64,000 bases of DNA from sequence record MT446392.1; one strand, given 5' to 3'. The stretch is from Escherichia virus TH15. Position numbers and translations under genes: made by a program. The notes beneath the pieces were generated by a model. The model saw only the letters and a list, made by a program, of their open reading frames with translations, was not told the origin of the DNA and made no database searches. Shown piece after piece: positions 1 through 60,989 of this stretch (its first letter is position 1; each line of letters starts with the position of its first letter).

Positions 1-1205
1 GATAGTGAATCGACAACGTTTTCAGGTTTAGTCGGGTCTTGACGTTCTTCTTGTACTTCACCTGTGATTAATGCAAACACTTCACCATCAATTGAATCCA
101 TCTTATAACAAACAGCTTTTGGGTTGCCGCTTATTGTGCTAAAACCAGCTTCAAACAATTTTTCACCAAACGTTGGAGAGTTAGGGTCATTATCAATCGG
201 AGCATCAGAAGATTTAGCTTTGTACACGCGGTCACGGCCAGAAACGTAAATCATGGAATCAGTCGTAGTAATTGCTTCAGCAATTGTTGAGATATAAGCA
301 GGGAGTCTTGCATACGTGCCAAATATTTCAATATCGAATCCGAGATTGATATCCGAACCAATTTTTGCAAATGTTATATCCTGAGAACTGAATCGAACAT
401 CATCAGCAGACCATCTTACGTCACTTGATTTACGACCGTAAAAAATTCGGTCATACCCGAGCACATAAGTTGTCGTATCTGATTGATAATAAATTGTGCG
501 CGATACGGGGTTGCCGATACGGTCATTAAACAATTTCACATAATACCAGTTCTGTCCTTTATCATTGGAGACTTTGACAGTTGTCTGGAATCGTTCAAAC
601 AAATACAACACGCCACCAAGTTCAGCAATCATCGTACGATTAACATCGTTACACACTGGCTGAATGCTACCCTGAATTTCGTGATATTGGTCTTCCTTTA
701 ATACATAGTTTGAAATTGAAGACAAATGAGAATATGCAGGAGTAAAGCTAAAATCTTCGGACATCAACGATGCCGTAATCGCATCATTATTAAAGTTAAT
801 ATAAGCCTGGTTGTTGTTTGCGAATTTTTCTTCAATGAATTTATTTGTTAATGTAAACTCACGCATGTGTTCAAATGTGTATGCGTTAGTTGCAAAGGTT
901 TCAAATTCTTCGGTATAAACCCAATCAGATTGCTCAAAACCCATTGCTGCAACGGCAACACGCATTTTGTAAAATGATACTGGACGAATAAAATCTTGTT
1001 CGAACCATTCATTGTCTGGAGTATAACCTAAATTCCTCCATAACAGATTTTCTTCTGGAATAGCAACACCATTTTCTTTTGTCGGAGCAATCTCAACAAA
1101 ATAATAAAAGTTGGCGCCAACATTATCCCATTTTATGCTAACCTGGTTAGCAGATAGTTTATCAATCCGTAAGCTGGTTACATAAGGGGCTTTAACACTC
1201 ATCAT
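1..1205 (-). CDS. 7: baseplate wedge protein gp7, N-terminal part (gene runs past window start)
   Basis: Minus-strand ORF from ATG at 1205 (SD aagga upstream) open to the window edge, hand-translated; N-terminus MMSVKAPYVTSLRIDKLSANQV resembles T4 gp7; lies downstream of gene 6 as in T4. Confidence 0.6.
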   Translation of the reverse strand, partial: MMSVKAPYVTSLRIDKLSANQVSIKWDNVGANFYYFVEIAPTKENGVAIPEENLLWRNLGYTPDNEWFEQDFIRPVSFYKMRVAVAAMGFEQSDWVYTEEFETFATNAYTFEHMREFTLTNKFIEEKFANNNQAYINFNNDAITASLMSEDFSFTPAYSHLSSISNYVLKEDQYHEIQGSIQPVCNDVNRTMIAELGGVLYLFERFQTTVKVSNDKGQNWYYVKLFNDRIGNPVSRTIYYQSDTTTYVLGYDRIFYGRKSSDVRWSADDVRFSSQDITFAKIGSDINLGFDIEIFGTYARLPAYISTIAEAITTTDSMIYVSGRDRVYKAKSSDAPIDNDPNSPTFGEKLFEAGFSTISGNPKAVCYKMDSIDGEVFALITGEVQEERQDPTKPENVVDSL

Positions 1206-1233: not shown

Positions 1234-3180
1234 TTATAGTGTAATTGGTTCGAGGTCAATCTTTGTATATTGGGGACGAAGGTCATTCTCAAATACAATC
1301 AGCGAACCATCTTGCGTGTATATATTATCTTGGTTAGGACTTGCATAAAGTTCGATTGATTGAACCTCAAAGCGGTCGGAGGTCAATCCAATCGCAGCGA
1401 TATCCCAAAAAATATAATCAGAATAATAGTCAATTTCGCCGATTGCGTAATAAACTGTTTGGTCAGCCGGAGCTTCCATTTTATTAAAGTCATCTTGTAG
1501 ATAAGGCTGGATGTTTACGTTTTCGATAACATCGCCTTGACGGAATGGACCAATTACCATTTTACCATCACCACGAGAATCTTTATCGGTTGCAACAATG
1601 CGAACGTTATAGGCTTCACCTGTGGTCGGAACAAATTCAAATTCACTTGATTCGACAGAACGGTTGCCATACTGGTTATAGTATTTAATGCCGGATTCTG
1701 GTGTCTTAAAGAAGTTCAGGACTTCACGCACCATCGAAATAGTTGCAGACGAACCAAGAATACTATGATCAGTATTATCAACATATGTGAGCATTTTTGA
1801 CTTAGCAAAACTTCTGTTAAAGATTTCGACTTCATCGATATAATAACGGTCAATTTGATTAATGATTTGCGCTTGCAACCATTGTTCAGATTCTTGTAAT
1901 TTGTTCAGCGCATAAGATACTTTGATATTATGTCTAAGGAACAAATAATCTGGAGAAATAACCGATGGTGTAATTGTTGATACGTTGAAATCCGCCAGGT
2001 AGTTCTGTATGTCCTCACGCTGCACTGCAGTGAGATATAGGCCCGATTTAGGCTTAACTGATATAAACGCATACCCAGGTTTATTGGCGTCCGTAAACGT
2101 CTGTACGGCTTGCACGATTGAGCCGAATCTTTCAGATACGAAGGTATCATAATCCGTTCCGGTGACAGCACGCATCTGCGCTTCACGTTTAACAACAGCC
2201 AGTTCACGGATTCGTTCGATATCTTCCTGGTCCCCGCCACCATCGGCACCGACATAATCAGGGTCGTCATTGTAGTTTTCGGTAATCTTATCCACTGTGA
2301 TATAAGACAACGTATCAGCATAACTGAAATCTACTGCACCGTTAGCATCCGCTCCTGATGTACGAAGATACTCAATAACAATTGTCGAATCTTGTACAGG
2401 TTTAAGACCGCCAATATAGTTGGCTTCCATAACGCCGCCGGCTACAGATTTAGTAGATTCACCTTCACCGAAGAAAAATTCCGTATAACCATCGATTGTT
2501 TCACGCATATAAAATATGGTGGAAGTCGAACCAGCGTGAACCATTGATTTGTTCGTCCAGTCAACCCACTCAACGCCGTTCACGTATAACTTAACTTCTT
2601 TGCGGTCGATATCCGGGTCACGAATAAGAATAGGTTGTTTCGGGTCATATAAAAGTTCTGTACGAATAATACGACCTTGTGCCAGAGATACAATCGGAAG
2701 GTATTGGTTGTTAATATCTTTAACTGCGATAACATTTTCAGTGGTAACAAAAACATAAGGGTCAGCTGATGTATCCCGAGCATAAGCCAGGAACTTAGTT
2801 CCACGAGGTATTTCAATATTCGATGGTTGCAGAGCATGGGAACACGTCAACATAACAGAAGTCTTTGCAGCTGAGCGAGAAGATGGAAGATAGCCATTAT
2901 CCTGTGCCGCCTGAACAACCGAAGACCTTAAGTTTGCAGTTCCGATGAATGTTTCATAAACCGCTGTATTAGCAAACTGCTGCATATACAATGTATTATA
3001 TGCAAGCATATCAATCAGGATGTTCATTCGCGAACCTACGAAATCATAATCCTTAAATTCATCCTGGCTTGATAACCAGTCGATGATGTTCTTTTTAATT
3101 TCTTCAAACGTAGCTCCCACAAATACTTTTGGGATAGCGTTAACGGTTCTTGTTAATTGGTAATTCGTAGGAGTAGCCAT
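1234..3180 (-). CDS. 6: baseplate wedge protein gp6
   Basis: 648-aa ORF (T4 gp6 about 660 aa); position between 5.4 and 7 in the conserved baseplate operon. Confidence 0.75.
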   Translation of the reverse strand: MATPTNYQLTRTVNAIPKVFVGATFEEIKKNIIDWLSSQDEFKDYDFVGSRMNILIDMLAYNTLYMQQFANTAVYETFIGTANLRSSVVQAAQDNGYLPSSRSAAKTSVMLTCSHALQPSNIEIPRGTKFLAYARDTSADPYVFVTTENVIAVKDINNQYLPIVSLAQGRIIRTELLYDPKQPILIRDPDIDRKEVKLYVNGVEWVDWTNKSMVHAGSTSTIFYMRETIDGYTEFFFGEGESTKSVAGGVMEANYIGGLKPVQDSTIVIEYLRTSGADANGAVDFSYADTLSYITVDKITENYNDDPDYVGADGGGDQEDIERIRELAVVKREAQMRAVTGTDYDTFVSERFGSIVQAVQTFTDANKPGYAFISVKPKSGLYLTAVQREDIQNYLADFNVSTITPSVISPDYLFLRHNIKVSYALNKLQESEQWLQAQIINQIDRYYIDEVEIFNRSFAKSKMLTYVDNTDHSILGSSATISMVREVLNFFKTPESGIKYYNQYGNRSVESSEFEFVPTTGEAYNVRIVATDKDSRGDGKMVIGPFRQGDVIENVNIQPYLQDDFNKMEAPADQTVYYAIGEIDYYSDYIFWDIAAIGLTSDRFEVQSIELYASPNQDNIYTQDGSLIVFENDLRPQYTKIDLEPITL

Positions 3181-3188
3181 TTTATTTC

Positions 3189-3482
3189 CTATTTTATAAA
3201 GACTTTTGATGAGGCTTGAGCCACAGTATCACCACATGAAATCGGGTCTGCCATCTGGACGGCCTTTTTGCCTGTAACATACACCTTTGATGTTCTAGGT
3301 TGGGTTACTCCACCATGGGTTTCATATGGTTTTTTAATTTCTGTATGTTCGGTAATAGGGTCCCCGGCAACTAACACAGGAATTCCCCCTGTGAATACTT
3401 TACCTTGGGTTGCATTGATTACAGTCGGCGGCCATGCTTCGTGACCTGCTGTAACACATTGATTAAAACTTAATCCAGCCAT
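3189..3482 (-). CDS. 5.4: PAAR-repeat baseplate spike-tip protein gp5.4
   Basis: 97-aa ORF immediately upstream of gene 6, same size and position as T4 gp5.4. Confidence 0.6.
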
Positions 3483-4004
3483 TTAATCCCTCGCGTATAC
3501 GTATGAACGCAATTTATCTGCACATCGGCTCCAGTTACCGACGATAGTTTTTGTGTAAACTTTTGTCATTGTCTTTCTTACTGGGGCCGGAGGTGGGTCT
3601 GTCTCGTTGCCTGCCCGACTATTACTACCACCAGAGTTCCCTGTGTCTCCTCCAGAGCTCTCTTCTTGAAAGTCATAGGTTAGGGTTACTGTGTATGAAA
3701 AGACCTTCTGGAGGCTCGCTGGGGCCCTCCAGAGATACAATTGAGTGCTCTTATCCACAGGAAGTTCTTCCCATGAAGCAGCAGTTTTGAATTCATCATC
3801 AAGCCGATATTTAAGTGCATCATCTGCAAATCCGAACACGGATTCATAAACACCATAAAGATGATTGCCCTCAACATTAACGCCAGGGGTGGCCTCATAT
3901 TCAGTTATATTTATTTCGACTAATGTTTCGTTTGTTTCTAATTGAGCTGTAAACGTAACATCGATTGAGGCTCCTTCCATGGAGTCTCCTAGGTCAGTGC
4001 TCAT
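3483..4004 (-). CDS. 5.1: hypothetical protein, gp5.1-like by position
   Basis: ORF 3483..4064; start placed at internal Met 21 (4004) because the longer start overlaps gene 5; Ser/Gly/Pro-rich C-terminus. Confidence 0.4.
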   Translation of the reverse strand: MSTDLGDSMEGASIDVTFTAQLETNETLVEINITEYEATPGVNVEGNHLYGVYESVFGFADDALKYRLDDEFKTAASWEELPVDKSTQLYLWRAPASLQKVFSYTVTLTYDFQEESSGGDTGNSGGSNSRAGNETDPPPAPVRKTMTKVYTKTIVGNWSRCADKLRSYVYARD

Positions 4005-10762: not shown

Positions 10763-11041
10763 ATGAAAACTTATCAAGAATTTATTAACGAATCAATTAG
10801 TCACCCGGATATGCTGGAAGACCTGAAAGGACATCTGATGGTTAAGGCCAAACCGGTTGATGGTGGCGCATTTGAGTTGTTTCTTGTTAAAGGCGAAAAC
10901 GGTCCTGATAACAAGAAAGTTTCAGCAATGATGTTGACTAAAGGTTACAAAGTCAGTTCTTCCTGGAATGCTCCATTCACTTACGCGGTAAGCCCTCGTG
11001 AACTGAAAAAAGTTAAAGCTGGACAATATACAAAAATTTAG
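10763..11041 (+). CDS. internal-protein-like protein with capsid targeting sequence (MKTYQEFINE)
   Basis: 92 aa; N-terminus matches the T4 IPI/IPII/IPIII targeting peptide. Confidence 0.65.
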   Translation: MKTYQEFINESISHPDMLEDLKGHLMVKAKPVDGGAFELFLVKGENGPDNKKVSAMMLTKGYKVSSSWNAPFTYAVSPRELKKVKAGQYTKI

Positions 11042-11076
11042 TGTACGTGATGGGATAGTTGCAGTATAATTATCCC
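11041..11076 (+). promoter_or_regulatory. early promoter cassette: -35 GTGTAC, -10 TATAAT inside palindrome GGGATA...TATCCC
   Basis: Near-identical copy (about 85 bp) of the cassette at 10707 including the first codons of the downstream gene. Confidence 0.6.
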
Positions 11077-11096
11077 ATCAACTACTGGAGCTACTA

Positions 11097-11351
11097 ATGA
11101 AAACTTATCAAGAATTTATTAACGAAGCCGCAGATGCAAAAGTTGAGTTTGCTTACGTTGGTTCCCCGCGCGGCAGTTTTTCTAATGAAGAATTCCGTCG
11201 TTCACTGGACAATTTCATGCAGTTAAGTGCTGAAGTATCGCATGATGGCCGTTATGACATCGTTACTATTAGCGGTTCTGAAGACCTTATCAAAAAGTGG
11301 TACAAGCAGAAAGATGTTGAGATGCGTTACTATCGTATCCCTAAAAAATAA
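11097..11351 (+). CDS. internal-protein-like protein with capsid targeting sequence (MKTYQEFINE)
   Basis: 84 aa; CTS-type N-terminus. Confidence 0.65.
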   Translation: MKTYQEFINEAADAKVEFAYVGSPRGSFSNEEFRRSLDNFMQLSAEVSHDGRYDIVTISGSEDLIKKWYKQKDVEMRYYRIPKK

Positions 11352-11386
11352 GTGTACATTTGAATGGGATAGCGTATAATTATCCC
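11352..11386 (+). promoter_or_regulatory. early promoter cassette: -35 GTGTAC, -10 TATAAT inside palindrome GGGATA...TATCCC
   Basis: GTGTAC, 17-nt spacer, TATAAT; palindrome; leader ATCAACTACTGAGGAG. Confidence 0.6.
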
Positions 11387-11408
11387 ATCAACTACTGAGG
11401 AGAATAAA

Positions 11409-11594
11409 ATGAAACGTTGCGAATTAATTAGAAATGTTACTGCCATTGTTGCTGTTACCGCTTTTGGTTTTAGCATGTTTGCTGGCTTTATGTTGAATAT
11501 GCTTTCAACTTCTGAGAATATAATCTCTTTAGTAGTGGCATTCTTAATTGGTTCAATCTCTTTTGTTATGGATAAAATCTCTAAAGGTGAGTAA
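11409..11594 (+). CDS. small hydrophobic protein (two predicted TM segments)
   Basis: 61-aa ORF behind a promoter cassette with SD. Confidence 0.45.
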   Translation: MKRCELIRNVTAIVAVTAFGFSMFAGFMLNMLSTSENIISLVVAFLIGSISFVMDKISKGE

Positions 11595-13132: not shown

Positions 13133-13161
13133 AGCCCCTCCCGAAAGGTTGGGGCTTTTTT
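13133..13161 (+). terminator. rho-independent terminator after the tRNA/RNA cluster
   Basis: Hairpin AGCCCC-(12 nt loop)-GGGGCT followed by TTTTTT. Confidence 0.6.
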
Positions 13162-14313: not shown

Positions 14314-14349
14314 GTTTTACTTCCAAGTGGGATAGTGTATAATTATCCC
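14314..14349 (+). promoter_or_regulatory. early promoter cassette: -35 GTTTTAC, -10 TATAAT inside palindrome GGGATA...TATCCC
   Basis: 17-nt spacer; palindrome flanks the -10. Confidence 0.55.
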
Positions 14350-14385
14350 ATACTGAGTTACCAAATAAACAAACGGGATAATAAA

Positions 14386-21739: not shown

Positions 21740-22495
21740 ATGAATTATCTAAAAATATATGAATCTTTAATAGTATCTGCTATTAAAAGACCTCTTACAC
21801 AAGGATACACCGAAAAACATCATATTTTACCGAAATCGATGGGTGGTAATGATTCTATTGATAATTTAGTTACCCTTACCGCCCGTGAACATTTTATTGC
21901 ACACTTATTATTGGCAAGAATTTTTAAGAATCGCGAAATGTGGTCCGCTGCATATATGATGGCTTCAACAAGTCTAACTAACTCGGATAGACATAGATGC
22001 TCGTCACATTTATATGAATTATTGCGTAAACAAGCGTCGGTATATAATTCAGGTGAAAATTCTCCAAATTGGGGAATAAAACGTTCTGAAGAAACACGAT
22101 TAAAAATGTCAATTTCAAAAATGGGTATCAGGAATCCAATGTACGGTATTCCACAATGTTTGGAACACTCTCATAAAATTAGCCTTGGTGTTACCGAAGC
22201 TTTTAAAAATCCAGAAATGAAAGAACGCCACCGTCAAAGTGTTTCTGGAGAGAATAATGGGTTTTATGGAAAAAAACATTCCGAAAAAAGTTTGGAAAAA
22301 CAGCGGAATACAAAACGGAAAGGATTTCCTTGGGACAATTATTTGGAATTGTACCCAATTTGGGTTTCATTAAATTGCCCCAAGCATCCAACATTCACAA
22401 ATGAACTTGTTAAATTGGGATACCCCAAAAAGAAGCTTGTTCGAATAGTGGAAGAGTTTAAAAATGAATATATTCGAAATGCTACGCATAGATGA
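21740..22495 (+). CDS. HNH homing endonuclease
   Basis: 251 aa; N-terminal [11 protein letters not shown]...[20 protein letters not shown] is the typical HNH core; NUMOD-like basic repeats at the C-terminus; overlaps start of e by 32 nt. Confidence 0.7.
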
Positions 22496-22952
22496 AGGTT
22501 GTAAATTAGATTTGTATAAAGATACCGAGGGGTACTATACCATTGGTATCGGGCAACTGATAACTAAGAACCCATCGAAAGATGTTGCTCGTGCCGAGCT
22601 CGACAAGCTCATGGGTCGCGTCTGTAATGGTCGCATAACCCAGCACGAAGCTGAAACATTGTTTAACCGTTCGGTCGAAAAAGCTAAAGCCGGAATATTG
22701 AGGCATCCTGTCTTAAAACCTGTTTATGATGTACTGGATGAAGTTCGTCGTTGTGCACTCATTAATATGGTATTCCAGATGGGTGTTGCCGGGGTTGCTG
22801 GTTTTCCTAAGGGACTGCGATTGCTCAAGGCCAAATCGTGGGAAGCTGCTGCTAAGGAACTGGCGGACTCAAGATGGTATAAAGTCCAGACTCCAAACCG
22901 GGCCAAACGAGTTATTGAAACTTTCCGTACTGGAACTTTTGACGCTTATTAG
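22464..22952 (+). CDS. e: endolysin (T4 lysozyme homologue, gene e)
   Basis: 162 aa; [12 protein letters not shown]...[11 protein letters not shown]...[13 protein letters not shown]...[13 protein letters not shown] closely parallels T4 lysozyme. Confidence 0.9.
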
Positions 22953-22989
22953 TTTACATCTCCAAACGATAGGGTTATAATGACCCTAT
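22952..22989 (+). promoter_or_regulatory. early promoter cassette: -35 GTTTAC, -10 TATAAT bracketed by inverted repeat ATAGGGT/ACCCTAT
   Basis: 18-nt spacer; 7-bp inverted repeat around the -10; leader ATCAACTACGGAG. Confidence 0.55.
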
Positions 22990-23007
22990 CAACTACGGAG
23001 AACAAAC

Positions 23008-23424
23008 ATGACTCGCATTAATTTAACCCTGGTATCTGAACTTGCTGACCAACACCTTATGGCTGAATACCGCGAGCTTCCTCGCGTGTTTGGTGCTGTT
23101 CGTAAGCATGTGCAAAATGGTAAAAAGGTGTCTGACTTTAAAATCCCATCATCTTTTCTTTTAGGAACTGGTCATGTCACCTTCTTTTATGATAAGCTTT
23201 TGTTCCTTAAAAACCGTCATCAAGAACTTATTGCTGAATGTTTAAAGCGAGGGTTTAATATAAAAGATATTTCTACCCAAGATTTAAATGATATTCCTGA
23301 TGAATGGAAGAATGATTATCAACCATCAATCTGGTCAATTGAAATCAGTCAATCCAGACTGAATGAGAAAATTTCTCAAAAGCCTACCTGGTACAAATAC
23401 TATGGGAAAGCTGTGTACGCTTAA
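23008..23424 (+). CDS. denV: endonuclease V (pyrimidine dimer DNA glycosylase) DenV
   Basis: 138 aa; [34 protein letters not shown]... closely parallels T4 DenV, same length. Confidence 0.9.
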
Positions 23425-23442
23425 CTAAAAAGGTTGTATAAT
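23413..23442 (+). promoter_or_regulatory. early promoter cassette inside the 3' end of denV: -35 GTGTAC, -10 TATAAT
   Basis: 18-nt spacer; -10 overlaps the denV stop region; the ATG at 23434 lies inside the element. Confidence 0.45.
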
Positions 23443-23472
23443 GATTTTATCAACCAAACAATGGAATATAAA

Positions 23473-23736
23473 ATGAAAACTTATCAAGAATTTATTACTG
23501 AATCTGCCAAAGCTCCTGCTGGTTCCTTTAAAGTCCGTGCCTTCGCTGGTGATGCTGAAGACTTTGGCTCACTGAAGCGCAACGGTTATTCTTTCTTTGG
23601 TGGTGATGGTAAAGAAATTGTTACCTATGCAAAACGTCGCGAAATCGCATTCGTGGTTGCTGGTAAGAAAGTATCCCCAGAAGATATTGAAGTTGACTTT
23701 GAGACCTTTGGTATTGTTTCTGGCGGTAAAGCTTAA
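23473..23736 (+). CDS. internal-protein-like protein with capsid targeting sequence (MKTYQEFITE)
   Basis: Start at Met 14 of ORF 23434..23736; CTS-type N-terminus; position matches T4 ipII/ipIII near denV. Confidence 0.6.
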   Translation: MKTYQEFITESAKAPAGSFKVRAFAGDAEDFGSLKRNGYSFFGGDGKEIVTYAKRREIAFVVAGKKVSPEDIEVDFETFGIVSGGKA

Positions 23737-23738
23737 CT

Positions 23739-23767
23739 GTTTACTTTATGATGGGATAGTGTATAAT
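23739..23767 (+). promoter_or_regulatory. early promoter cassette whose -10 overlaps the start codon of the next gene
   Basis: -35 GTTTAC, 17-nt spacer, GGGATA, TATAAT; the ATG at 23766 is formed by the last two bases of TATAAT plus G. Confidence 0.5.
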
Positions 23768-24065
23768 GTTAACTTATCAAGAATTTATCACAGAAGCCAA
23801 AGTTCCTAAAGCATTTCAAATTGGGGTTCAAGGCAATTTAGACCAACAATATGTTGATGCTATTGTAGCAAGCCTCGGTAAACAAGGGGTGCAAGTGGAT
23901 TTGGTTGATTTTACCAAAGGCAATACTTTTAATATTGTTACATCTAAAGGTTCTTTAGCTAAAGTTAAAAAGGCCTTTGGCGTAGCACAAGCATACGAAA
24001 TCGACCATTCTGAATTCGAAAATAAAGGTCGCCAGAACACAATTAAAGGCTCTGGTTCTTTTTAA
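23766..24065 (+). CDS. internal-protein-like protein with capsid targeting sequence (MLTYQEFITE); leader deleted
   Basis: 99 aa; CTS N-terminus with K2L change; no SD, ATG inside the upstream -10. Confidence 0.5.
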   Translation: MLTYQEFITEAKVPKAFQIGVQGNLDQQYVDAIVASLGKQGVQVDLVDFTKGNTFNIVTSKGSLAKVKKAFGVAQAYEIDHSEFENKGRQNTIKGSGSF

Positions 24066-24229
24066 TAAAGGCAAACCGACCCTCTCCTCATGAACGTCGT
24101 GTCCTCTGAGTGATGGACCTTTCCCTACCTGTAATAAGGTCGAGCCCGAGTGCGGTAAGGGGTTTACATTCGGATACATGGATGAATTAATGTGCCAAGG
24201 AATGGCCCCAAAACCTTAAGAGAAACAAT

Positions 24230-24775
24230 ATGAGAACTTTTTTAACTGGACCTTATCTATCCCTGATGAATGCTTTTACCCACCATTCTGATGCTCGAAT
24301 AGAAGAACTTTGTAAGACCGATTGTTATATTCCTCCAATGGAAGTCTTGCTCAAAGAATACTGCACACTCCGTATGGATGGCGGGCGACAATCAGGTAAA
24401 TCTACTGCAGTAACTAATTTTGCTGCTAACTGGATTTATGACGGAGGTACAGTAATTGTCCTGTCTAATACCTCGGCTTATGCAAGAATTTCATCCGATT
24501 CTATCAAAAATGATTTTATTCGTTTTAGCGCGGAAGATATTCGTTACCGGCTTTTCCATGATTCATTACGTAGCTTTATCGGTAATAAAGGTTCTAAATT
24601 CCGTGGCCTTGCGCTTTCACGCGTATTGTATATAATTGATGAACCTATTAAAGCTCCTGATATGGACAAGATTTACGATATCCATATGAAAACTGTACAA
24701 CACTGCTGCCATGCTCATTGTTTTAAAACGGGTGAAACAGTTCGTCCTCAATTTTTTGTGATTGGAATGCAATGA
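24230..24775 (+). CDS. P-loop NTPase-like protein
   Basis: 181 aa; Walker A-like GGRQSGKST about residue 50. Confidence 0.45.
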   Translation: MRTFLTGPYLSLMNAFTHHSDARIEELCKTDCYIPPMEVLLKEYCTLRMDGGRQSGKSTAVTNFAANWIYDGGTVIVLSNTSAYARISSDSIKNDFIRFSAEDIRYRLFHDSLRSFIGNKGSKFRGLALSRVLYIIDEPIKAPDMDKIYDIHMKTVQHCCHAHCFKTGETVRPQFFVIGMQ

Positions 24776-25128
24776 TGAATACTATCGAAGTTTTTGAATA
24801 TTGTTATAGCAGCTCCGCTTGTAATAAAAAGGCCCTCGTAGAAAACTATGAGATATTCCATTTTAAACCTAAACGGTATCGTTTGACTAAAGGTCCATTC
24901 AAGGGACAACAGGTTCTCTGTACCGCACCAAATGAACGTCTGATGAATATCATTCCATATTTCAAAATGGAATTCATTGGCAGACGTTATAAAGGGCTAA
25001 TCACTCAAAGCCTGATGGCTTATGGCTCTGATCCGATTTTGATGGAACAAACCGAATTTAAAAAGTTTTATACAGGTTCAGCCGTTTTAGCTGAACCTAA
25101 AGGCTTTACGGTGGCCCATCATGGCTAA
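24772..25128 (+). CDS. hypothetical protein
   Basis: 118-aa ORF, start overlaps upstream stop. Confidence 0.45.
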   Translation: MMNTIEVFEYCYSSSACNKKALVENYEIFHFKPKRYRLTKGPFKGQQVLCTAPNERLMNIIPYFKMEFIGRRYKGLITQSLMAYGSDPILMEQTEFKKFYTGSAVLAEPKGFTVAHHG

Positions 25129-25960: not shown

Positions 25961-26419
25961 ATGACTACTATCGATTCAAGTGTTTACATTCGCCGCAATA
26001 AACTTCGTCGTATTTTTGAAACGGAGTTCCTCAAAATTAATAATGCTATCAACAAGGCTTGTAAAGAAGCAGGCCTTGAAGCATTCTTCATTAAGTACAG
26101 TCCACACCTGTTGGACCGTGCAATCCAACGTGAAATTGACGAACAATATGTTTTTGACTTGTTTGGAAAAATCACACCACATGTAAAAGAAATTGTTGAA
26201 TTCCTGGAGATGAAACCACTCCCGGAAGTTGAAGCACAAATTGACCCGAATGTGAACTACCGTCCACTTCGTCTGGAAATCACAGACAAGAACCTATGGT
26301 TAGGAATGACAGTTAACCCAGCTCTTCCTGGGAAGTCTCCAACCATGTGTTGTCGTATGGCGTTTGTTAACTCTAATCGTCTGGAAGGAAAAATTAGCAC
26401 AAAAGTGATTTATATCTAA
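25961..26419 (+). CDS. regB: endoribonuclease RegB
   Basis: Start at Met 20 of ORF 25904..26419; ...YIRRNKLRR...HLLDRAIQREIDE...RPLRLEITDKNLWLG... parallels T4 RegB. Confidence 0.85.
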   Translation: MTTIDSSVYIRRNKLRRIFETEFLKINNAINKACKEAGLEAFFIKYSPHLLDRAIQREIDEQYVFDLFGKITPHVKEIVEFLEMKPLPEVEAQIDPNVNYRPLRLEITDKNLWLGMTVNPALPGKSPTMCCRMAFVNSNRLEGKISTKVIYI

Positions 26420-60968: not shown

Positions 60969-60989
60969 AGGGGCTTACAGCCCCTTTTT
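60969..60989 (+). terminator. rho-independent terminator after gene 41
   Basis: AGGGGC-TTACA-GCCCCT followed by TTTTTC. Confidence 0.65.

Follow-up and report, generated by a model that had tools for sequence, protein, structure and literature searches.

A truncated promoter cassette fused to the start codon of an internal-protein gene in a T4-type phage

How is a gene read, and why is it kept, when its start codon lies inside the -10 box of the promoter in front of it? The question is raised by ip7, an internal head protein gene of Escherichia virus TH15 (record MT446392.1), which we examined in a stretch of 64,000 nucleotides, hereafter the window. The region belongs to a T4-type phage of the VR7/SP18 group (genus Gaprivervirus) and is its e-denV-internal-protein (IP) segment. 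The best megablast match for 23000-24300 was VR7 (96.6% identity), and over a 24-kb stretch the closest phage records reached about 95% identity at most. The gene sits in a variable IP locus with the order e, denV, ipX, ip7 and then a vs.8-like gene from 24230, its AUG 29 nt past the stop codon of ipX (Table 1). The upstream gene ipX is a homologue of VR7 ORF127c, and the Ip7 protein is 100% identical to the annotated Ip7 of VR7, with which it shares the start position. Pfam searches with Ip7, IpX and IpY (an IP-like protein of the relative TH44) returned no meaningful match, and an Rfam search of 23300-24400 at a permissive threshold returned none.

Table 1. Positions of features at and around the ip7 junction, numbered from the first letter of the window.
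Feature	Position	Strand	Basis or remark
Lysozyme gene e	22464-22952		gene order
denV	23008-23424		gene order, after e
Upstream early-type promoter, at the end of denV	23413-23442	+	promoter scan; -35 GTGTAC 23413-23418, 18-bp spacer, -10 TATAAT 23437-23442
ipX, upstream cistron	23473-23736	+	87-aa internal head protein (MKTYQEFITESAKAP...); phrog_2667, E=5e-21
Truncated promoter cassette	23739-23767	+	right arm, +1 ATCAAC, leader, GGAG Shine-Dalgarno (SD) and RegB site all gone
-35 box GTTTAC	23739-23744	+	
Left hairpin arm GATGGGATA	23750-23758	+	includes GGGATA 23753-23758
GGGA of the orphaned left arm, candidate weak SD	23753-23756	+	inferred; 9 nt upstream of the ATG
-10 box TATAAT	23762-23767	+	17-bp spacer from the -35 box
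ip7	23766-24065	+	99-aa internal head protein (MLTYQEFITEAKVP...); phrog_2667 'internal head protein', E=1.8e-41, residues 1-99/99
Chimeric capsid targeting sequence (CTS) MLTYQEFITE	23766-23795	+	ATGTTAACTTAT of ipY type (TH44), CAAGAATTTATCACAGAA of ip7 type
Deletion joint	23767-23768	+	30 bp (TATCCCATCAACTACTGAGGAGAATAAAAT) lost; comparison with L019 (TH44) 731-766
Expected start zone of the residual promoter	23772-23776	+	sigma-70 geometry and ATCAAC spacing; 5-9 nt past the -10 box, in codons 3-4, downstream of the ATG
Conserved, GC-rich, non-coding spacer from ip7 to the vs.8-like gene	24066-24229	+	164 bp; context, outside the mechanism
regB, endoribonuclease gene	25964-26419	+	PF10715, E=3.7e-72

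Two neighbours of the locus were recorded in passing. A homing-endonuclease-like ORF (HNH/NUMOD3, 21740-22495), situated between nudE and e, extends into the start of e. The GC-rich element behind ip7 was found in 967 phage records from at least seven genera, usually intergenic and adjoining IP genes; it has invariant blocks, and our searches of it found no conserved reading frame, Rfam match or convincing structure. The T4 annotation assigns part of it to the 5' end of vs.8.

Direct reading of the sequence placed GTTTAC, GGGATA and TATAAT exactly where a preliminary description of this DNA, made from the letters alone, had put them. The two boxes are separated by 17 bp, within the 17±1 bp of an early-type promoter, and together form a near-consensus T4 early promoter. 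The pattern GTTTAC-N8-10-GGGATA-N2-5-TATAAT occurs once in the window and in none of 100 shuffled sequences. The left hairpin arm stands alone; because its partner TATCCCATC is missing, the copy before ip7 is a degraded half cassette, and the strong hairpin that RNA folding predicts for PSD2001 and TH44, whose cassettes are intact, is missing from the truncated junction. The GGAG leader is deleted as well, as the preliminary description had noted for the TATCCC arm and the leader, both of which the window's intact cassettes possess. The ATG (23766-23768) overlaps the promoter, its A and T being the last two bases of the -10 box and its G the base that follows. No start upstream of 23766 is possible, because an in-frame TAG occupies 23757-59, and the first ATG after 23766 (at 23851) is out of frame. 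The copy is a commonplace case of cassette degradation at a hyperplastic IP locus.

Intact cassettes elsewhere in the window define what has been lost. The promoter scan located them at 11041, 11352, 14315 and 22952; the first precedes another IP gene (MKTYQEFIN...) and the last precedes denV, and at 60973 the -10 box, right arm and leader are present and the left arm is missing. The intact layout is a -35 box, N17/18, left arm, TATAAT, right arm (TATCCC or gaCCCTATC), ATCAAC..., GGAG and ATG; in each of these cassettes ATCAAC lies exactly 6 nt past the -10 box, its first base 7 nt on. Between cassettes, changes in the arms of these inverted repeats round the -10 boxes are compensatory.

At least six junction types were found upstream of ip7 among relatives, with ip10 and ipY each present or absent. 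PSD2001, VR20, 212, TH54 and ECML-359 carry an intact cassette directly before ip7, with the junction ...GGGATAGTG(C/T)ATAATTATCCCATCAA(C/T)TT(A/G)GAG(A/C)GAATAA(A)ATGAAAACTTATCAAG. TH40 and VR26 have no cassette, and ip7 lies 13 nt behind ip10; JS98-like genomes also have none, and there ip7 follows denV and uses its downstream promoter. In TH44 an intact cassette drives ipY, a 65-aa IP-like gene beginning ATGTTAACTTATAAAGAATTTATG (MLTYKEFMKE; start TATCCCATCAACTACTGAGGAGAATAAAATGTTAACTTATAAAG), and ip7 (MKTYQEF...; start ATGAAAACTTATCAAGAATTTATCACAGAAGCC) begins without a cassette 8 nt past the ipY stop; TH41 shares this layout, with 97% identity over the stretch. In TH40, VR26 and TH44, ip7 is therefore a promoter-less distal cistron directly after another IP gene, and the TH40 allele is the one most similar to that of the window (99.1% identical over 23771 to 24778). 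The truncated cassette is the same, base for base, as the 5' half of the cassettes that TH44, ECML-359 and TH54 carry intact, and the ip7 cassette lies at indel or replacement boundaries between close relatives. This comparison of orthologous junctions, which the preliminary description had proposed, marks the truncated junction as the derived form.

The identical truncated junction was found in VR7, in VR25 and in 11 independent metagenome contigs from at least nine samples, and thus is not an assembly artefact. A scan of IMG/VR with GGGATAGNGNATAATG was unspecific (more than 120 chance matches); filtered for an upstream -35 box, its matches came down to VR7, VR25 and one unrelated phage promoter whose -10 box is enclosed by an inverted repeat. 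Exact-protein look-ups returned the window's Ip7 in 14 contigs and an F84L variant in three more, from several sewage and gut metagenome projects plus VR7, and in all contigs examined the truncated junction was unchanged, 29 nt past the ipX stop. Its backgrounds vary: ip10 is present or absent, as is an additional gene of 89 aa after e and before denV, and the vs.8 alleles encode 169, 175 or 181 aa. The junction has persisted from an isolate sequenced by 2010 (VR7) to later isolates and metagenomes of several studies.

Behind this junction ip7 has remained intact. All 14 junction-bearing sequences have the full 99 codons with no frameshift or stop, and their eight nucleotide alleles are connected by 14 synonymous and two non-synonymous steps (binomial P=4e-8 against a neutral expectation of 78% non-synonymous), a count in which the metagenome contigs, having been picked by exact protein identity, are biased against non-synonymous variants, and to which recombination with ip7 alleles from intact-junction phages may have contributed some of the synonymous diversity. 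A conservative correction, in which ten unseen non-synonymous variants are assumed, still gives P=3e-4, and the family-wide pN/pS of ip7 is 0.03-0.1. The CTS, a stretch of about ten residues at the N-terminus (MKTYQEFIxE type), retains Tyr4, Phe7, Ile8 and Glu10, and residue 2 alone differs (Lys>Leu). In T4 IPIII, residues 4 and 7 of the CTS are critical for targeting and residues 8 and 10 for processing (PMC9026906), and residue 2 is not among the positions singled out there as critical. Ip7 would therefore be expected to retain a functional CTS and still enter the capsid; the mature N-terminus predicted after cleavage at Glu10 is AKVPKAF..., giving the peptide AKVPKAFQIGVQGNLDQQYVDAIVASLGK. 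By homology, CTS residues and locus, Ip7 is classed as a T-even internal head protein with a CTS. The substitution pattern indicates that ip7 is conserved under purifying selection and is not dying, which runs against the earlier suggestion that it is a decaying copy.

If the gene is maintained, its message has to come from elsewhere. By sigma-70 geometry and the ATCAAC spacing of the intact cassettes, the residual promoter must start 4-10 nt past its -10 box, within codons 2-4 of ip7, in agreement with the earlier proposal that transcripts from the fused promoter begin 3' of the ATG. With its predicted start zone inside codons 2-4, this promoter would be unable to serve ip7, and because ip7 has no in-frame downstream start, its transcripts would serve only vs.8 and beyond. 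It probably still fires, feeding genes 3' of ip7 alone. Since its own promoter would start downstream of the ATG, ip7 would be read from RNA started upstream. An early-type promoter lies at the end of denV, and the same promoter and leader stand before the first IP gene in VR7, PSD2001 and TH40; no terminator-like site was found on the + strand between this promoter and 23766. We propose that ip7 is a distal cistron of an ipX operon, with RNA supplied by the denV-end promoter and any promoters further upstream, so that it is probably expressed as the second gene of this operon through read-through RNA.

The preliminary description had envisaged translation from read-through RNA without an SD. 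The read-through RNA appears likely, but 'without an SD' was an overstatement, as the GGGA of the left arm lies 9 nt upstream of the AUG and the duplex with the 16S 3' end has an estimated energy of -5.6 kcal/mol. This equals the median of 104 putative genes of the window, although the estimate uses a bulged duplex and the contiguous GGGA core alone is weaker. The corresponding values (kcal/mol) are -3.3 for ipX, -3.3 for e, -2.9 for vs.8 and -0.9 for the TH40 ip7. Deletion of the right arm frees GGGA from the hairpin: by RNA folding, the probability of being unpaired is 0.49 for this stretch, compared with 0.21-0.25 for positions -13..-8 of intact leaders, where the strong hairpin forms. Accessibility of the start site itself (0.44 truncated, 0.33-0.44 in intact read-through leaders) shows no decisive difference, and the ip7 start region is not sequestered in the predicted fold. 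Re-initiating or freshly loading ribosomes would be expected to reach the ip7 AUG, using the unpaired GGGA and a weakly structured, A/U-rich leader. Re-initiation by ribosomes ending ipX 29 nt upstream is a possibility.

The nearest match to the late promoter motif TATAAATA is at 13161, about 10 kb upstream of ip7; with no canonical late promoter nearby, the need to supply a head protein late in infection counts against the reading from the ipX operon. We rejected AAAGCTTAA, which stands at the end of denV and of the IP genes, as a candidate MotA box, since there is no TAnnnT at the required 11-13 bp. In the literature on VR7 proteomics and transcription we found no report of Ip7 detection.

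The deletion also bears on RegB, an endoribonuclease encoded in the window. The optimal target of RegB with S1 is GGAGAAUAAAA (GGAGRAYARAA), and GGAA is cut very poorly (PMC1702504). The sequence GGAGAATAAAA, which fits the published consensus (PMC1702504), has six exact matches in the window where chance would give 0.34; the + strand carries five of them, and two, at 11399 and 61019, fall within cassette leaders. The segment of the TH44-type leader that is missing at ip7 includes one GGAGAAUAAAA site, and GGAGRAYARAA has no match in 23737-23765, its six matches in the window all lying elsewhere. Because the 30-bp deletion removed the GGAG site, the ip7 initiation region is predicted to be RegB-resistant. 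The other promoter-less ip7 junctions, TAAGGACC and AAAGAAAC, likewise lack GGAG, and ipX has a weak SD, GGAAUAUAAAAUG, with uGGAAu (23463-66).

Three other accounts of the gene's fate were weighed against selection and read-through from ipX. Silencing of ip7 by the deletion, with the gene surviving as a pseudogene too young to have acquired lesions, would fit the loss of the canonical SD, the leader and the gene's own start site, and the IP genes of T4 are individually non-essential; moreover, the three isolate genomes alone give two synonymous changes and one non-synonymous change, which carries no statistical power. The full set of 14 intact reading frames with its 14 to two excess of synonymous steps, the persistence of the junction across differing backgrounds, isolates and metagenomes, and a ribosome-binding potential not below that of demonstrably needed genes such as e make this account very unlikely. 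Still further from probable, to the point of being barely credible, is a leaderless ip7 mRNA made from a weak overlapping promoter (TTAACT 23733-38, 16 bp, GATAGT 23755-60) that starts at the A of the ATG. Its geometry permits a start at 23766-67 and GATAGT retains the critical A2 and T6, but with 8/12 consensus matches it fell under the promoter-scan threshold and was not called, it overlaps, and would compete with, the near-consensus promoter 7 bp downstream, and leaderless mRNAs are generally translated poorly in E. coli. The third account accepts that the gene is kept and makes the deletion itself adaptive: the 30-bp loss would have been selected because it removes the early start site together with a RegB/S1 site. 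An early, quickly inactivated message would thereby have become a RegB-resistant distal cistron tied to ipX and continuing during prohead building. We consider this account unlikely, though worth keeping in view. The deleted segment does hold the published optimal site GGAGAAUAAAA, regB lies 2 kb downstream and such sites are strongly enriched in the leaders of this phage; the first IP gene of the locus has GGAA, reported to be very poorly cut (PMC1702504), the promoter-less junctions TAAGGACC and AAAGAAAC are also without GGAG, and the junction is common in sewage metagenomes of several studies. Against this, many relatives (VR20, ECML-359, TH54, 212) retain a GGAG leader before ip7, and the commonest ip7 protein allele (54 contigs) is carried by several GGAG relatives, so that harm from GGAG is not evident; the junction may also owe its frequency to hitch-hiking in a successful lineage. 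The complete version, an adaptive switch that by one 30-bp loss of start site, right hairpin arm and RegB/S1 site leads from an early, RegB-inactivated monocistronic ip7 to a RegB-resistant, ipX-coupled cistron in which the GGGA arm would be re-used as ribosome-binding site, is a shade more doubtful still.

The origin of the junction can be followed by comparison with TH44. Relative to genomes with an intact cassette before ip7 the net loss is 27-28 bp, and relative to the TH44-type cassette exactly 30 bp are missing, which bears out the earlier estimate of a deletion of about 30 bp. In the TH44 leader GTGTATAAT is followed by TATCCCATCAACTACTGAGGAGAATAAAAT (30 bp) and then by GTTAAC, and taking out TATCCCATCAACTACTGAGGAGAATAAAAT gives the window's GTGTATAATGTTAAC exactly. 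The deleted 30 bp are bounded by the near-repeats TATAAT and TAAAAT, and held the start site, the right hairpin arm, the leader, the GGAG SD and a perfect RegB/S1 site. The coding sequence behind the joint is chimeric: its first 12 bases, ATGTTAACTTAT, are of ipY type, and the sequence is of ip7 type from CAAGAATTTATCACAGAAGCC onward. The CTS codings of ipY and ip7 are identical at 19 of 23 bases and have AACTTAT in common. The ancestor may have been TH44-like, with ipX, an intact cassette, ipY (MLTYKEF...) and ip7 (MKTYQEF...). Homologous recombination between the ipY and ip7 CTS codings, within AACTTAT, would then have dropped the body of ipY and joined the chimeric start ATG TTA ACT TAT to CAA GAA; the two-base codon change AAA>TTA (Lys2>Leu) would follow from this recombination. 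In a second step, slipped mispairing would have removed exactly 30 bp, from the -10 TATAAT to the TAAAAT before the start codon. The two-step path and the order of its events are what we infer from the sequences now available.

A shorter route would be a single deletion in an MK-type cassette-ip7 junction like that of ECML-359, followed by AAA>TTA point changes and without ipY; the junction form that this implies is the MK form fused to the -10 box, TATAATGAAAACTTATCAAG. Only one rearrangement is required, and ECML-359 and TH54 have the identical promoter half directly before an MK-type ip7. The two-step path predicts as intermediates a Leu2-ip7 preceded by an intact cassette or an ipY preceded by a truncated one; that our searches of 50,697 phage records, IMG/VR and JGI metagenomes yielded neither also favours the shorter route. 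A search with ATGTTAACTTATMAAGAATTTAT returned VR25 alone from IMG/VR and a single unrelated AT-rich chance match from JGI metagenomes. Yet two adjacent substitutions would have to recreate the exact ATGTTAACTTAT of TH44 and TH41, and the end-points coincide with the near-repeat TATAAT/TAAAAT solely with a TH44-type leader. Given that ATGTTAACTTAT stands behind the same cassette in TH44, the single-deletion route appears less parsimonious than the two-step path, and we rate it as improbable. As a source of the junction, a single deletion from one AACTTA repeat of the PSD2001 leader to the other was rejected, since it would retain TATCCCATC and destroy the start codon. For the locus as a whole, the explanation we favour, and hold to be reasonably probable, is that a half cassette was left behind by recombination in the IP locus and that ip7, under selection, is read from the ipX operon.

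The junction can be regarded as a clean, datable scar of the reshuffling of T4-type injected internal proteins, in which one site displays two mechanisms, recombination in the shared CTS coding and microhomology deletion in a repeated cassette. It suggests that selection can maintain an IP gene from which the promoter start, the leader, the SD and the RegB site have gone, which argues that IP genes are normally expressed from operons and that canonical SDs are dispensable to them. The case also cautions annotators that a gene may not be served by the perfect promoter immediately 5' of it. RegB escape, if true, would link cassette decay to the timing of anti-defence cargo, and an adaptive switch, if true, would be a natural instance of a cannibalised promoter cassette retiming a packaged anti-defence protein. 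Current understanding is not overturned by the ip7 junction.

Among known systems, the cassettes most resemble the promoter-early stem-loop cassettes (PeSLs) of T4-like phages (Arbiol et al. 2010, PMC2839356; Comeau et al. 2014, PMC4122927), which are likewise short, repeated intergenic modules of early promoter, stem-loop, SD and start codon, are placed before small accessory genes of hyperplastic regions, and act as recombination points, with partial cassettes found beside indels. Earlier work has already described how IP genes of T4-type hyperplastic regions are shuffled by way of the flanking and targeting sequences they share (PMC2839356), and also degraded '1/2' PeSLs beside indels in T4-like phages (PMC4122927). 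A PeSL, however, has a G/C-rich terminator hairpin upstream of its -35 box, whereas here the inverted repeat brackets the -10 box, with the left arm in the spacer and the right arm in the discriminator. A nearer counterpart is provided by the IP-associated elements of T-even phages (Repoila et al. 1994, as presented in PMC2839356), where the IP genes, as here, share only the N-terminal CTS and vary between phages. The T4 ipIII and ipII promoters are of the same design, with GTTTAC, an inverted repeat enclosing the -10 box (AATTGTGA..TCACAATT and CTAGAATTGTGA..TCACAATTCTAG), a leader and ATGAAAACATATCAAGAATTT; on this ground the window's cassettes are identified, from sequence, as the T-even IP-associated analogue of the PeSL mentioned by Arbiol et al. 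(PMC2839356). The T4 IP locus is variable too, as is the presence of ip10 and ipY between the relatives studied here. Its elements differ in their arms, which are GGGATA/TATCCC or GATAGGG/CCCTATC in the present cassettes, its gene order is e-ipIII-ipII-denV instead of e-denV-IPs, and in T4 no IP gene is fused to a -10 box. The intact leaders also resemble the T4 leaders cut by RegB with S1 (Durand et al. 2006, PMC1702504), in that they end in GGAGAATAAAATG, an optimal site overlapping the SD, and regB is encoded in the window. At the ip7 junction, by contrast, GGAU and a sequence that is not A-rich are left, predicted to be resistant by the rules of PMC1702504. In published degraded PeSLs the -35 box stays, whether the stem is kept or not, and it is the -10 box that is lost, whereas at ip7 the -35 box, the -10 box and the left arm survive, everything 3' of the -10 box is lost and the start codon lies inside that box. 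The ip7 junction is thus a new and well-resolved case of cassette degradation, unusual in being cut directly after the -10 box, with the start codon inside the promoter.

We also observed that the 164-bp 'spacer' separating ip7 from the vs.8-like gene is deeply conserved at the nucleotide level. This GC-rich element was present in 967 phage records (at least 80% coverage in 305 of them), distributed over the genera Gaprivervirus, Mosigvirus, Tequatrovirus, Tegunavirus, Gelderlandvirus, Roskildevirus, and Marfavirus. Its invariant blocks, including ACCTGTAAnAAGGTCGAGC and ATGTGCCAnGGAA, are separated by stretches carrying indels of 1–2 nt, and the reading frame is therefore not conserved. No Rfam match to the element was obtained, and on folding, MFE z-scores were about 0 and the RNAalifold consensus was weak. 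The element usually lacks annotation and usually adjoins genes for internal head proteins (IPs); in loci L015 and L016 and in Klebsiella phage F48, an IP gene lies downstream of it. In T4, the sequence homologous to part of it is annotated as the vs.8 N-terminus (MRDSRQPVIRSSPSAV...MCHGMAQ...MRTFLTG). Read in the same frame, the window gives MDLSLPVIRSSPSAVRGLHSDTWMN, a TAA stop codon, and then an in-frame continuation to MRTFLTG. The conserved ATGTGCC block falls in a frame different from that of T4. Either the long vs.8 start has been misannotated in T4, or it is the window's extension that has become degenerate.

Features of the window and of related phage loci
Feature	Position	Strand	Description
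Early-promoter cassettes	11041-11100, 11352-11412, 14315-14370, 22952-23010		inverted repeat bracketing -10
T4 promoters	T4 (L022) 2740-2800, 3440-3500	-	inverted repeat bracketing -10
GC-rich element	24066-24229		164 bp, between ip7 and vs.8-like gene
vs.8 5' region	24112-24232; T4 (L022) 1817-1913		homologous sequences
Homing-endonuclease-like ORF	21740-22495		HNH + NUMOD3, 251 aa, inserted between nudE and lysozyme e
GGAGAATAAAA	11399, 14901, 33204, 33790, 61019	+	exact copies
GGAGAATAAAA	35336	-	exact copy
regB	25964-26419		phage's own gene
ipY	TH44 (L019) 763-960		65-aa IP-like ORF, MLTYKEFMKEVKKLKK...

Gene content in this region differed among relatives. In VR7, VR25, and TH40, denV is separated from the following IP gene by ip10, which is missing from the window (23473-23505, compared with VR7 locus L001 1974-2320). 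In the alignment, the ipX start matched the starts of VR7 ip10 and VR7 ORF127c equally well, as expected if a deletion (or insertion) had occurred by recombination between the sequences coding for the targeting sequence. ipY, whose targeting sequence is a variant form, was detected only in TH44 and TH41 within the phage collection, and had no PHROG match. The homing-endonuclease-like ORF overlaps the start of e (22464) by 32 nt, and no HNH/NUMOD3 ORF occupies the nudE–e position in VR7 or PSD2001.

The window also contains six exact copies of the published optimal RegB/S1 cleavage site (PMC1702504), where chance alone predicts 0.34. Two of the six, those at 11399 and 61019, are situated within cassette leaders, directly before start codons.

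The arms of the cassettes vary in sequence yet remain complementary (GGGATA/TATCCC and GATAGGGT/ACCCTATC), and such complementary changes suggest selection for a hairpin or cruciform whose loop holds the -10 box. The same design was present in an unrelated 112-kb IMG/VR contig (L037 5842). In T4, the arms bracketing the -10 boxes (AATTGTGA/TCACAATT and CTAGAATTGTGA/TCACAATTCTAG) are likewise complementary, and are unlike those of the other cassettes.
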